Assembly (NCBI GenBank): GCA_019634005.1 | Contig: JAHQWD010000002.1 | Location: 30,969-94,968, forward strand | Source of the DNA: Candidatus Kaiserbacteria bacterium | GTDB taxonomy: Bacteria > Patescibacteriota > Minisyncoccia > Phycocordibacterales > UBA918 | Direction: 5' to 3' | DNA length: 64,000 nucleotides | In this document: positions 9,238-49,327 of the stretch, in pieces | How positions within the stretch are numbered: position 1 is the stretch's first letter | How the letters are laid out: every line of letters starts with the position of its first letter | The notes under the pieces: model-generated | What the model was told of the DNA's origin: nothing | The model's database searches: none | The model's input: only the letters and a program-made list of their open reading frames with translations | Program-made: the position numbers and the translations under genes

Positions 9238-9266
9238 ATAGTATCCGAAATACGTGGTGGTGTCAA
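9238..9266 (-). promoter_or_regulatory. Strong sigma70-like promoter TTGACA-17-TACTAT (minus) for rpsS...rplE
   Basis: Minus read ttgacaccaccacgtatttcggatactat; perfect -35 with 17-nt spacer; immediately follows terminator of upstream small ORF. Confidence 0.55.
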
Positions 9267-9270
9267 TATA

Positions 9271-9300
9271 AAAAGAAAACGCCGAGCCCGAGGGCATGGC
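9271..9300 (-). terminator. Rho-independent terminator after small membrane ORF
   Basis: 8-bp stem AAAACGCC/GGCGTTTT with internal mini-hairpin, then U-tract on minus strand (cgttttctttttat). Confidence 0.5.
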
Positions 9301-44974: not shown

Positions 44975-45616
44975 CTATTTGAATGCACGACGCATTCGGG
45001 ACGCTTCCTCTTCCCCGTCATCAATTTTTTGTTTCAATGCTTTCAGTCCGCGATGTAGGCGAACAGAAACAACGTTCTCTGTCTCCTCTATCAGGTGACT
45101 GATCTCCTTCGGACCAAGTCCGTCAATGAATCGAAGTACCAACACCTCACGATACGTGTCTGGAATCTCTTCAAGGAGTCCCAATGCACGTTCAGCATCC
45201 ATCGAAAATGTTAACTCTTCGATGGAACCACCGTGAAGTTCTTCAAACTTCCCCTCATCAGTCCCCTCTTCTTCCATAAGCGCATCGAGTGAGTGTTCTT
45301 TACGCTTACGGTACTCATCGATGATGAGATTGTTGAGAATCTTGTACAGGAATGGTTTGTATGACTGTACTTCGTGTCCTCCGCGGATATACCCCCACAC
45401 TTTTGTGAAGGTGTCGTGAACGAGTTCGATTCCCCGTTCGCGATCCGAGAGTCTGTACACAGCATGGCGAAAGAGCGCATCACTGTATTCATCAAAAGCT
45501 TTCAAGAAACGTTCCTCATGGTTCCCTCCTGAAGCGATGTTTTCGTTTGTGAGTCCATCTTTCTCCATGTGTGAACCATTATATACGGAGACGGACGAAA
45601 TGCCGACTTCTTTCAC
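44975..45616 (-). CDS. RNA polymerase sigma-70 factor, ECF subfamily
   Basis: Region 2 (ERFLKAFDEYSDALFRHAVYRLSDRERGIELVHDTFTKVW) and region 4 HTH (EVLVLRFIDGLGPKEISHLIEETENVVSVRLHRGLKALK). Confidence 0.8.
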   Translation of the reverse strand: MKEVGISSVSVYNGSHMEKDGLTNENIASGGNHEERFLKAFDEYSDALFRHAVYRLSDRERGIELVHDTFTKVWGYIRGGHEVQSYKPFLYKILNNLIIDEYRKRKEHSLDALMEEEGTDEGKFEELHGGSIEELTFSMDAERALGLLEEIPDTYREVLVLRFIDGLGPKEISHLIEETENVVSVRLHRGLKALKQKIDDGEEEASRMRRAFK

Positions 45617-45695
45617 AGAATAAGGCTCGATTTTTCCTCAAACAGATGGTATGATTGCCCCTGCACAATTTGCTTATATTTCTTTTTGTTTAAGT

Positions 45696-45766
45696 CGGGG
45701 TGTAGCATAATGGTAGTGTACACGGTTTGGGACCGTGCGGCCGGGGTTCGATTCCCCGCTCCCCGA
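45696..45766 (+). tRNA. tRNA-Pro (anticodon UGG)
   Basis: CGGGGTG TA GCAT AATGGTA GTGT A CACGG TTTGGGA CCGTG CGGC CGGGG TTCGATT CCCCG CTCCCCG A; perfect anticodon and T stems; one U-U mismatch in acceptor stem (pos 6-67). Confidence 0.75.
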
Positions 45767-45787
45767 CTTAGGCTGAAAGAGAAAGAA

Positions 45788-45811
45788 AAGAACATGCAGT
45801 ACTGCATGTTC
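45788..45811 (+). terminator. 24-bp perfect palindrome agaacatgcagtactgcatgttct followed by T-tract; terminator after tRNA-Pro
   Basis: Read directly; shares GAAC/CATG/GTTC elements with downstream repeat array. Confidence 0.5.
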
Positions 45812-45821
45812 TTTTCTTTTG

Positions 45822-46079
45822 GTTCCATGTGGAACTGACAGTATGAGTTTCACGTGGAACAAAGTTACCATTCTCCCTACCTGTTCCATATGGAACAGGT
45901 ACATATTCCTATTTCGTACAGCGTATAGGTTCCATGTGGAACGTGTATTCCTAAAATCTATACAAAACTAAACACCTTTACCTCCAACCAGCTCAATTCA
46001 GGGAGTTTGTTCCATGTGGAACCGTCTAAACAGCTTTTGGCACACTAAATACTTCAAAATCATATGTTTCACGTGGAAC
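45822..46079. repeat. Array of six 14-bp imperfect palindromes, consensus GTTyCAyrTGGAAC (candidate operator/iteron cluster)
   Basis: Copies at 45822 gttccatgtggaac, 45847 gtttcacgtggaac, 45883 gttccatatggaac (perfect palindrome), 45929 gttccatgtggaac, 46009 gttccatgtggaac, 46066 gtttcacgtggaac; spacings 25/36/46/80/57 bp; unique spacers; between tRNA-Pro and a cupin-like gene. Confidence 0.7.
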
Positions 46080-46225
46080 AATAGGCTATATTTACTATGT
46101 CTTTTTATATAAGGTAATAAATAAGCCATATTTTAAAAAGACGTGCTTTTTGAATAAATGTCCTTTATACACATATCCCCTGTTTTATGCACAGTTTTGC
46201 ACATTTCAGGTATACTATCTACATT

Positions 46226-46510
46226 ATGGAACTATCTGAACGATATATACAAAAGCTTGAAGATGAAGGATTTTCTCACGTATGCGATGAACAAGATGAT
46301 CCAGGTAAAATTTACAAAGAACATGAGTGTCAGAATAAAGTGTCTCTTATTATTACGGACGGATCTTTAGAAGTTATTCTTGATAATGAGGTTAAGAGAC
46401 TTTCAACACACGATCGACTTGATATACATCCACAAACAAAACTATCTGCAGTTGTTGGTCCTGAAGGATGCGGATACGTCGTTGGAGAGATGATTAAGGG
46501 TGATTTTTAG
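46226..46510 (+). CDS. hypothetical small protein, possibly cupin-like (94 aa)
   Basis: Start trimmed to MELSERY (ATG 46226); beta-rich with Cys/His (SHVCDEQDDPGKIYKEHEC...GPEGCGYVVGEM); assignment weak. Confidence 0.4.
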   Translation: MELSERYIQKLEDEGFSHVCDEQDDPGKIYKEHECQNKVSLIITDGSLEVILDNEVKRLSTHDRLDIHPQTKLSAVVGPEGCGYVVGEMIKGDF

Positions 46511-46573: not shown

Positions 46574-47227
46574 ATGAGTACACGTAAGGAACGGGCTTTT
46601 GAACTCCGTAAAAAGGGGAAGAGCTATAACCAGATATCCGAAGAAATTGGCGTCGCAAAAAGCACTCTATCCAACTGGTTCAAAGGAATGTCCTTTTCAG
46701 AGGAGATAAAGAAACAGCTTCGTAAAGAAGCCCAGGGAGTGAGTATTGAACGAATTGAACGCCTCAACAGAGTGCGTGGAGAAAAATTAGATGCTCTCTA
46801 CGCAAGGGCACAAGAAGAAGCACGCGCTGAAGCGGGTAAATATGCGTTTAATCCACTTTTTGTAGCTGCCGTAGCGGCATATTGGGGAGAAGGGGACAAG
46901 AAGTCTAAAAATCATGTTCGTCTAACGAATACAGACCCAAAAATGATAGCTCTCTTCCGTAAATTTCTTCTTGAAATATGTAAAATACCTGACGAAAAGA
47001 TAAAAGGGGCGCTCTTTATCTACGAAGACTTAGATGAGGCCGCCTGCAAGGAATACTGGGCGCGTGAGACGGGTATCACACAGTTTCACAAGACGATGAT
47101 ACTGCCGAAACCTAAAGATGAGACACATGTTTCATATGGAACATGTTCTCTTATTGTCTCAAATACGTATCTGAAGACAAAAATGAAGGTTTGGATTGAC
47201 CAATTGCCCGAAATAATATTACAATAG
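46574..47227 (+). CDS. DNA-binding protein: N-terminal HTH plus LAGLIDADG-like segment (homing-endonuclease-like); tentative
   Basis: HTH KGKSYNQISEEIGVAKSTLSNWFKG; later FVAAVAAYWGEGDKKS resembles LAGLIDGDG motif; start trimmed to MSTRKER. Confidence 0.45.
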   Translation: MSTRKERAFELRKKGKSYNQISEEIGVAKSTLSNWFKGMSFSEEIKKQLRKEAQGVSIERIERLNRVRGEKLDALYARAQEEARAEAGKYAFNPLFVAAVAAYWGEGDKKSKNHVRLTNTDPKMIALFRKFLLEICKIPDEKIKGALFIYEDLDEAACKEYWARETGITQFHKTMILPKPKDETHVSYGTCSLIVSNTYLKTKMKVWIDQLPEIILQ

Positions 47228-47489: not shown

Positions 47490-48962
47490 ATGATCACTAA
47501 AGAACATATTCCTCTTGAAGTACGAATTGTCGCAGAAACGCTTGAGAAAGCGGGTTTTGAAGCGTATCTGGTAGGAGGATGTGTGCGAGACATTCTTACA
47601 GGAAAGACACCAAAAGACTGGGACATTACGACAAATGCCCATCCCGAAGATGTTGAAAAGATATTTGAGAGCACCTTCATGAATAACGACTTCGGTACTG
47701 TTGGTGTCGTAAATGAGGAGACAGAAGACGAGTCTCTTAAGGTAGTGGAAGTAACTCCATACCGAAGTGAGTCTGGATATTCTGATGCTCGACGCCCTGA
47801 TGAGGTGACCTTTGGTGTTTCACTCGATGATGATCTCACTCGAAGAGATTTCACGGTAAACGCCATTGCATACCGTGTAAAGGACAATACGCTCGTAGAC
47901 CCATTTGATGGGCAAAAGGACGTAAAGGACAAAAAACTTCGTGCGGTGGGGGAGGCAAGACTTCGATTTGAAGAGGACGCACTTCGTATGATGCGCGCTG
48001 TACGCCTTGCTGTCGAGCACGATTTCATCATTGAAGCCGAAACCATGGCTGCAATTACCCAAAATGCATCTAACTTGGAGCGTATCTCAAAAGAACGTAT
48101 TCGAGATGAGTTCGTTCGTATCATTAACTCTGCACAGCCCATGCAGGGAATTGTATTCCTTGAGAAGCTGGGACTTCTCCCCTATGTATTGCCACACATT
48201 GCTGACGGTATTGGTATCGAGCAAAACCAAGCACATGCATACGATGTATACGAGCATAACCTCAGGTCTCTCCAGCACGCTGCAGACAAAAACTATCCAT
48301 TCGAGATCCGTCTTGCAGCCCTCCTTCACGACATTGGAAAGCCAGCTACCCGAGAACACAGTGAGGAAAAAAGAGACTGGACCTTCTACAACCACGAGGT
48401 AGTTGGGGCAAAAATGGCTAAAAATATACTCAAAGACCTTAAGTTTCCACGTGAAACCACTGAGACGGTCACAAAACTGGTGCGGTGGCACATGTTTTTC
48501 TCAGACCCAGACCAGGTAACACTCTCTGCAGTGCGACGCACTATACGCAACGTAGGAGAAGAACAGATCTGGAATTTACTCAATCTCCGCATCTGCGACC
48601 GCATTGGTACTGGACGTCCAAAGGAGCAGCCGTTCCGTTTCCGAAAATACAAATCTATGGTGGAGGAAGCACTTCGAGACCCCATTTCTGTAAAGATGCT
48701 TAAAATGGATGGTGGGAAAATCATGGGGATAACTGGTGAAAAACCTGGTCCTAAGTTGGGGAATATTCTTCACGCACTTCTTGAAGAAGTTCTTGATGAC
48801 CCTAAGAAAAATACTGAGGAGTATCTCGAAAAACGAGTAAAAGAACTCTCTGGAATGCCTGAGAAAGAACTTCGTGCACTTGGAGAGAAAGGGAAGGAGA
48901 AGCAGGCGGAAACTGAAGCGCAGGAAATCAAGAAGATACGCCGTAAAAACAAGGTGTATTAA
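47490..48962 (+). CDS. cca: CCA-adding tRNA nucleotidyltransferase with HD domain
   Basis: Pol-beta NTase head (AYLVGGCVRDILTGKTPKDWDITT) and HD motif LAALLHDIGKP. Confidence 0.85.
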   Translation: MITKEHIPLEVRIVAETLEKAGFEAYLVGGCVRDILTGKTPKDWDITTNAHPEDVEKIFESTFMNNDFGTVGVVNEETEDESLKVVEVTPYRSESGYSDARRPDEVTFGVSLDDDLTRRDFTVNAIAYRVKDNTLVDPFDGQKDVKDKKLRAVGEARLRFEEDALRMMRAVRLAVEHDFIIEAETMAAITQNASNLERISKERIRDEFVRIINSAQPMQGIVFLEKLGLLPYVLPHIADGIGIEQNQAHAYDVYEHNLRSLQHAADKNYPFEIRLAALLHDIGKPATREHSEEKRDWTFYNHEVVGAKMAKNILKDLKFPRETTETVTKLVRWHMFFSDPDQVTLSAVRRTIRNVGEEQIWNLLNLRICDRIGTGRPKEQPFRFRKYKSMVEEALRDPISVKMLKMDGGKIMGITGEKPGPKLGNILHALLEEVLDDPKKNTEEYLEKRVKELSGMPEKELRALGEKGKEKQAETEAQEIKKIRRKNKVY

Positions 48963-49030: not shown

Positions 49031-49327
49031 AGAATGGGGTGGTTTTACGAAGTGTTACAAGGGCCTCTGCCCAAACGCGATGAGTCATTCCATGCTCAAG
49101 TCGCACAAAAGTAATCACATTCATACTTCAAAATGATTCACATATGTTTCGAACCATCTTGGAAATAGATGAACTATAGAGTTATTTGGAGGTTTTACTC
49201 TTGTACAAAGATCTGCTTTGGGGACAGTAGTCATGTCGCCCGCCTTTCTGGCCTACCCAAAGTATATGTCCTTTAGAGACTTTGTAAAAGACATTACTGT
49301 GGATAAATGTCCTTTATAAAAAGTCCT

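Follow-up and report, generated by a model that had tools for sequence, protein, structure and literature searches.

Six palindromes beside a tRNA-Pro gene of a Candidatus Kaiserbacteria bacterium as a probable parS cluster with lineage-specific centre variants

The parS sequence, which is nearly universal among bacteria, acts as a centromere: ParB binds it when sister chromosomes are separated. In the standard mechanism of the ParABS partition systems, ParB nucleates at parS sites and slides along the DNA as a CTP clamp, ParA provides movement and SMC is loaded (PMC7333895). The number of parS sites per genome ranges from 1 to 20-23, and the sites are clustered near the origin (PMC7333895). 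For Bacillus subtilis, in which the ParB protein is Spo0J, the parS sequence TGTTCCACGTGAAACA has been reported (PMC4333373); the consensus, TGTTNCACGTGAAACA, is a 16-bp palindrome present at multiple sites, which are spread through the fifth of the chromosome nearest the origin, with one inside parB. In Streptomyces coelicolor and Listeria innocua, with 20-23 sites, and in Pseudomonas aeruginosa, with parS1-4 at oriC, several parS copies lie together near the origin and form one partition complex and SMC loading zone (PMC7333895; PMC10419367). A ParB paralogue, Noc, binds a related 16-bp palindrome, the Noc-binding site (NBS, with the core ATTTCCCGGGAAAT), which is told apart from parS by half-site positions 1 and 6, these being A1/C6 in NBS (PMC7383237). 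Here we analyse a 64-kb stretch of contig JAHQWD010000002.1 from a Candidatus Kaiserbacteria bacterium (Patescibacteria, or Candidate Phyla Radiation, CPR), referred to below as the window, which carries an array of six 14-bp palindromes that we propose to be a cluster of parS sites.

Likeness of the palindrome array to parS

Searching the window with the degenerate 14-bp pattern GTTYCAYRTGGAAC gave six exact sites, all within 258 bp of a single intergenic region (starts 45822, 45847, 45883, 45929, 46009 and 46066; Table 1), which fall into three variants: GTTCCATGTGGAAC in three copies, GTTTCACGTGGAAC in two and GTTCCATATGGAAC in one. These positions and copy numbers agree with the original prediction, as do the unique spacers and the irregular start-to-start gaps of 25, 36, 46, 80 and 57 bp. 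The extended flanks of the two GTTTCACGTGGAAC copies had been described as identical, but their 5' bases differ (a versus t; aGTTTCACGTGGAACaa at 45846 and tGTTTCACGTGGAACaa at 46065). By chance 0.02 matches to the degenerate 14-mer are expected in the 64 kb, and the observed number was reached in none of 100 shuffles. Together with a seventh exact site (47129) and one near match (48444), the six lie within 2.6 kb of the window, and the two or three weak matches found elsewhere (4440, 1316 and 57462, with one or two mismatches) are at about chance level. The strong sites are thus concentrated, and scatter of the motif at a similar density, which had been named as one case against the prediction, does not occur within the window.

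With its flanks the site at 46065-46080, TGTTTCACGTGGAACA, is identical at 16 of 16 positions to the reverse complement of B. subtilis parS, and the earlier statement that the palindrome matches no known box is therefore overturned (PMC4333373). The four sites other than the two GTTTCACGTGGAAC copies agree with the consensus at 13-14 of 16 positions; sites of the CATGTG form deviate at the innermost base in a single half-site and those of the CATATG form in both, and three of the four also at an outer flanking base. All six read GTTYCAY and thus have the half-site bases G1 and A6, and the GTTC...GAAC half-sites, from which a dimeric DNA-binding protein had been deduced, fit parS and ParB.

A scan of 185,579 species genomes, one per species, for two motif copies 5-35 bp apart, for which about 0.03 chance hits are expected by our own arithmetic, returned at least 120 loci. 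Among the matches listed are members of the Acidobacteriota, Bacteroidota, Actinomycetota, Firmicutes, Proteobacteria, Planctomycetota and Parcubacteria, and a ParB gene with a GERRxRA box is present in 44 of the 120 listed loci of 8 kb (37%). A metagenome scan for a CATATG-type site pair gave loci with ParB in 20 cases out of 120. In two long records (Terriglobus roseus NC_018014 and Terrabacter LjRoot27) the site pair is located within about 30-40 kb of a record end; provided that dnaA lies near the start of these records, this agrees with proximity to the origin.

Judged from sequence, it is very probable (roughly 85%) that the six palindromes constitute a cluster of chromosomal parS sites, i.e. 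centromere-like loading sites of a ParABS system, in the chromosome of a member of the Kaiserbacteria. A parS cluster is a well-known kind of element; here it is newly seen in a CPR lineage, with a centre variant specific to the lineage and a neighbouring module that is possibly linked to the origin. The source organism would be expected to encode a ParB, and this protein would bind all six sites, the CATGTG- and CATATG-centred variants included. A ParB dimer would dock by its helix-turn-helix (HTH) domains on each 16-bp palindrome, and CTP binding stimulated by parS would close it into a clamp that slides onto the flanking DNA, so that a single dense partition complex would arise from several adjacent sites. 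This complex would be moved by ParA, should the genome encode it, and would also load SMC condensin, whereby the newly replicated origin region would be organised and separated.

The array has the G1/A6 half-site of B. subtilis parS, but differs from the sites of that organism in that six are packed into 258 bp with no parB nearby, and in that four of the six are CATGTG- or CATATG-centred. The local density is also higher than in most multi-site clusters, since at least five sites per 260 bp were found in two of 120 sampled loci elsewhere; the description of the array as unusually dense is therefore fair, although the array is not unique in this respect. Five sites are spaced at an exact 23-bp period in a Clostridiales metagenome-assembled genome (L084, 942-1047) and eight occur in 640 bp of a Flavobacterium sp. 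(L105, 94-735), indicating that very dense parS arrays exist in other phyla too. Ten canonical parS sites, with three copies of a three-site unit, are found in 800 bp of a Parcubacteria group bacterium (L051, JBAYWF010000010.1, 7009-7812). These are located inside an open reading frame (ORF) for a membrane-protein-like product of 364 aa, in which the sites translate as FHVEQ, CSTWN and VPRGT, and gyrA lies just upstream. The genome from which the window derives is about 1 Mb in size, judged from related contigs of 0.6-1.0 Mb.

Several other identities were considered for the palindromes and rejected. The LexA (Cheo) box has the opposite order of half-sites (GAAC-N4-GTTC), and an NBS needs A1/C6, which none of these G1/A6 sites possesses. 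The 14-mers are not DnaA boxes, with which they have only TCCACA in common, in just three of the six sites, and true DnaA-type boxes are located 85 bp away. A mobile repeat or miniature inverted-repeat transposable element was discarded on the ground that the spacers are unique and not conserved.

Conservation in relatives and variation at the centre

Relatives of the locus were gathered in two ways, via a neighbouring HTH protein and via the metagenome scan for the CATATG-type site pair. All 22 non-redundant related loci contain three to eight sites within 0.25-1.5 kb, in the same interval between tRNA-Pro(TGG) and the HTH gene or tRNA-Gly(GCC), and the cluster is retained despite local inversions and loss of the UPF0102 gene. 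The common block consists of the CCA enzyme, tRNA-Arg, an optional cupin gene, the HTH gene and tRNA-Gly(GCC), followed by the site cluster, which usually overlaps the UPF0102/YraN gene; beyond it lie tRNA-Pro(TGG) and then the genes for an extracytoplasmic function (ECF) sigma factor and DUF5667. Two loci, the window and L125 (its closest relative), have lost the UPF0102/YraN gene, on which several of the sites normally lie, and contain the cupin-HTH-tRNA-Gly unit in inverted orientation; this explains why the six sites stand in 258 bp of bare intergenic DNA. The site cluster and the DnaA-box module described below have kept their mutual arrangement in both (region 45600-46230, compared with L128, L155, L165 and L180). 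Comparative genomics of the tRNA-Pro region, as proposed in the original prediction, further revealed that, in the alignment of the window with L125, site columns reach 76% identity and the spacers 32% (Fisher p 1.5e-11). The sites are thus far better conserved than the spacers, and it is the sites themselves that are under purifying selection. Conservation of the degenerate site at 48444 in L125 may be due to coding alone.

Several observations weigh against the identification as parS. No ParB was found in the 64-kb window by tblastn with 45 ParB sequences, nor is parB present in any of 27 related loci, which reach up to 10 kb either side, whereas in other phyla 37% of the loci have parB within 8 kb. 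A non-canonical centre is present in four of the six sites, and the 118 sites in Kaiserbacteria-like clusters comprise 74 with a CATATG centre (63%), 26 with CACGTG and 18 with a mixed one; part of this lineage sample was chosen for one CATATG site and is thus biased, although loci found through the protein show the same trend. Some relatives contain CATATG sites only, with no canonical CACGTG site. By contrast, a sample of 357 sites from other phyla comprised 336 with CACGTG, 21 with CACATG and none with CATATG, although the search pattern allowed all three. To judge from this dominance of CATATG in the lineage against 0 of 357 elsewhere, the specificity of the binding protein must be relaxed or shifted, unless another protein binds these sites. 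With respect to origin proximity, the cumulative GC skew of the window merely flattens at 46 kb, with no V.

If the sites are parS, their core in the Kaiserbacteria lineage has drifted from CACGTG to CATATG. A literature search found no mention of a CATATG-centred parS, and nothing useful on ParB in Patescibacteria or Parcubacteria. CATATG-centred sites are prevalent in L125, L127, L129, L131, L145, L152, L180, L195, L227 and L238, and are represented in the window at 45883 and 47129. The canonical CACGTG site adjoins the AT-rich and DnaA-box module in 10 of 16 relatives, and in loci with both types the CACGTG site on the module side is usually followed, 24-38 bp on, by a CATATG or mixed site.

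A protein other than ParB could be supplied by the neighbouring gene, the 217-aa product of which (identical to KTR10_00750 of Candidatus Kaiserbacteria bacterium) carries an HTH and a LAGLIDADG-like domain. The palindromes would then be operators, or lineage-specific centromere or origin sites, of a dimer of this protein, instead of or beside ParB, for example at the CATATG sites. In every related locus the gene is at most about 1 kb away from the cluster, and it occurs in both orientations; among the 120 metagenome loci, 17 encode the HTH family and are disjoint from the 20 with ParB; and CATATG centres are almost specific to the Kaiserbacteria-like lineage. Members of the family hardly vary in the predicted recognition helix (KSTLSNWF), a 47-residue helix in the structural model could mediate dimerisation, and WhiA, the closest architectural analogue, binds DNA. 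However, all 17 of these loci represent one syntenic lineage in which the CCA enzyme (57-72% identical), ExoIII, the ECF sigma factor with DUF5667, UPF0102 and three tRNAs are equally linked, so that adjacency is not independent evidence of function, and we downgraded the link to the HTH protein accordingly. Moreover, the universal parS is used in phyla where the examined loci turned up no homologue of the HTH protein, and extra paralogues are encoded away from any site cluster (L195 and L122). We consider this alternative distinctly improbable. The partition site, one of the functions suggested in the original prediction, is upheld by the parS identity; nothing specific supports the operators and cleavage sites also suggested there, and synteny explains the adjacency on which they were based.

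The cleavage sites in question would be those of the LAGLIDADG-like protein acting as a homodimeric homing endonuclease. Homodimeric LAGLIDADG enzymes do recognise palindromes, and in a by-eye alignment to I-CreI the motif WGEGDK retains both acidic positions of the LAGLIDADG motif. The predicted order of secondary structure elements, alpha-beta-alpha-beta-alpha-beta-beta-alpha, is nevertheless not the classic alpha-beta-beta-alpha-beta-beta-alpha, and a Foldseek search of the protein against PDB gave no significant hit. A homing site normally occurs once and is interrupted by the element, and the locus offers no intron or intein context. Furthermore, in every relative purifying selection would be maintaining six to eight cleavage sites next to the gene of the very enzyme that cuts them, a self-destructive arrangement, which makes this explanation scarcely credible.

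The adjoining AT-rich stretch and DnaA-box array

On the side of the site that is identical to B. subtilis parS, the array adjoins a second element, composed of an AT-rich stretch and a tandem array of DnaA-box-like sequences (Table 1). The three 9-mers TTATACACA, TTATGCACA and TTTTGCACA fall within 39 bp (46165-46203) and account for three of the five TTWTNCACA matches in the 64 kb. Outward from the canonical edge site the module is ordered as AT-rich stretch, GGACA/TGTCC element and two to four DnaA-box 9-mers in the same orientation, and relatives have an equivalent AT-rich stretch of 85-110 bp in the same position. The boxes of L155 (TTATCCACA, TTATCCACA and TTTTCCACA) are spaced exactly as in the window, and the same layout with perfect TTATCCACA boxes is observed in L155, L203/L152, L200 and L199. 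Across 22 loci, 25 of 54 boxes lie no more than 250 bp from the cluster, in 8.6% of the sequence (9-fold, p 3e-13). The position of the module relative to the sites is constant whether UPF0102 or the cupin gene adjoins, which argues against its being merely the promoter of one gene.

The module is located at 5100-5237 in L155, 4440-4490 in L203, 2387-2440 in L152, 8727-8830 in L199, 11100-11161 in L200 and 9520-9623 in L125, as well as at about 303 kb in the complete genome CP060229.1 and about 26 kb in the circular 617-kb contig ERZ25071297:ctg7344, and in many relatives an inverted repeat, AAGGACA-N22-25-TGTCCTT, is found inside it. A perfect DnaA box (TTATCCACA) is also present in the window on the minus strand at 49298-49306, between the genes for the CCA enzyme and exonuclease III; it is conserved in L125 (13269) and L128 (13592), and a tandem pair occupies the equivalent place in L165 (5048/5058) and L180 (5958/5968). 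This box may represent a second DnaA-box site flanking the locus.

With its three to four same-orientation TTATNCACA boxes about 10 bp apart, GC-containing GGACA element and 78% A+T stretch, the module resembles the basal unwinding system of bacterial oriC, but differs from it in that it is not beside dnaA or dnaN and in that DnaA-trios were not identified. It is possible that 46080-46203 is a replication origin, the whole forming a compact origin-plus-centromere locus, and on these sequence features we would rate the chance at somewhat short of even. Divergence of gene orientation at the module in the window favours this assignment, and in 12 of 13 loci the GC skew on the right of the module exceeds that on its left, although these loci are syntenic and gene orientation confounds the comparison. 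The ribosomal-protein, EF-G and EF-Tu operons in the same window fit an origin-proximal location. Against an origin, the boxes overlap a promoter-like match; no dnaA, dnaN or DnaA signature was found in the 64-kb window, nor any Bac_DnaA hit among the called genes of L122-L130. The module could equally be a DnaA-regulated promoter or DnaA operator.

The conserved tandem DnaA-box array and the 78% A+T stretch that directly adjoin the palindromes, with the divergence of gene orientation at the array and the skew, would also agree with the palindromes being themselves replication-origin iterons, to which an initiator binds and not a partition protein. This is very improbable, as DnaA-type boxes form a separate element 85 bp off and the palindromes are no such boxes, neither dnaA nor dnaN is encoded in the window, and parS identity together with the ParB association elsewhere fully accounts for the palindromes. 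An origin beside parS would complement the assignment as parS, not supplant it. More speculatively, the DnaA-box array, the AT-rich stretch and the parS cluster, which together take up about 0.5-1.3 kb at a distance from both dnaA and parB, may form a compact lineage-specific origin-plus-centromere module. Its CATATG sites would be read either by a ParB whose specificity has shifted or by the HTH and LAGLIDADG-like protein as a CPR-specific centromere or origin factor; we regard this as unlikely.

Neighbouring features and biological meaning

The remaining content of the window, which includes ribosomal-protein operons and genes for EF-G, EF-Tu, NusA, trigger factor, ClpP, RecJ, PGK/TIM, UvrD, KsgA, an ECF sigma factor with its DUF5667 partner and a CCA-adding enzyme, is that of an ordinary chromosome. 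A 24-bp palindrome upstream of the array (45788-45811), which the original prediction related to the six sites, is real but belongs to a separate element and was rejected as an array member. The hairpin of which it is the core is bounded by A- and T-tracts directly after tRNA-Pro, and L125 has a hairpin of unrelated sequence in the same position (9249-9275); conservation of position rather than sequence identifies it as the tRNA-Pro terminator. A simple terminator scan missed this hairpin.

The 217-aa HTH protein resembles WhiA in its modelled architecture. WhiA, however, has two degenerate LAGLIDADG domains and a C-terminal HTH, whereas this protein has a single LAGLIDADG-like domain and an N-terminal HTH, and homology is not apparent at the sequence level; searches of PDB, PHROGs and NCBIfam with the sequence gave generic HTH matches only. 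The family is found in Kaiserbacteria and Parcubacteria; the motif WGEGDK is nearly invariant in it, and the genes are often tandem duplicates, with tRNA-Gly(GCC) after the last copy in every locus checked. Paralogues are located at 6592-10666 in L122 (four copies), 9307-10654 in L126/L127, 9306-10666 in L129 and 5626-7498 in L155.

Table 1. Coordinates of the palindromes and of other features around them in the window
Feature	Position	Strand	Remarks
tRNA-Pro(TGG)	45696..45767	+	ARAGORN; flanks the site cluster in relatives too, left landmark
tRNA-Pro terminator hairpin	45781..45820	+	Fold -23.6 kcal/mol, z -6.6; core is the 24-bp palindrome 45788-45811
parS-like site 1, gGTTCCATGTGGAACt	45822..45835		Centre CATGTG; aligns with a site in L125
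Putative parS site 2, aGTTTCACGTGGAACa	45847..45860		15/16 to B. subtilis parS (45846-45861)
parS-like site 3, tGTTCCATATGGAACa	45883..45896		Perfect 16-bp palindrome, CATATG centre; 14/14 identical to the aligned L125 site
parS-like site 4, gGTTCCATGTGGAACg	45929..45942		Pattern match; L125 alignment
parS-like site 5, tGTTCCATGTGGAACc	46009..46022		Pattern match; L125 alignment
Putative parS site 6, tGTTTCACGTGGAACa	46066..46079		Exact reverse complement of B. subtilis parS TGTTCCACGTGAAACA; adjoins the AT-rich stretch
AT-rich spacer	46080..46157		78% A+T versus 54% for the window; candidate DNA-unwinding region
Tandem DnaA-box-like array	46158..46203	+	tgtccT-TTATACACA-(tatcccctg)-TTATGCACA-g-TTTTGCACA; same orientation, ~10 bp spacing
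Sigma-70-like promoter match, TGCACA-17-TATACT	46188..46216	+	Consensus match only; -10 kept in L125; overlaps DnaA boxes; upstream of the downstream operon
Cupin-like ORF, 94 aa	46226..46510	+	Neighbour, outside the element; no Pfam hit; L125 orthologue has a weak Cupin_2 hit
217-aa protein	46574..47227	+	N-terminal HTH, long helix, LAGLIDADG-like domain; conserved neighbour
Seventh exact site, tGTTTCATATGGAACa	47129..47142		Within the 3' end of the HTH gene; identical site kept in L125 at 10556
Degenerate site with one mismatch, gTTTCCACGTGAAACc	48444..48457		Within the CCA-adding enzyme gene; identical sequence in L125 at 12400

As a parS cluster the array is ordinary biology, and the main value of the finding lies in the correct annotation of what seemed to be an unknown regulatory array. 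With the site cluster, the DnaA-box module and the WhiA-like neighbour in hand, experiments on origin mapping and ParB specificity are easy to design. For an uncultured CPR lineage with an unstudied cell cycle, the locus indicates where the centromere probably lies, and possibly the origin as well.
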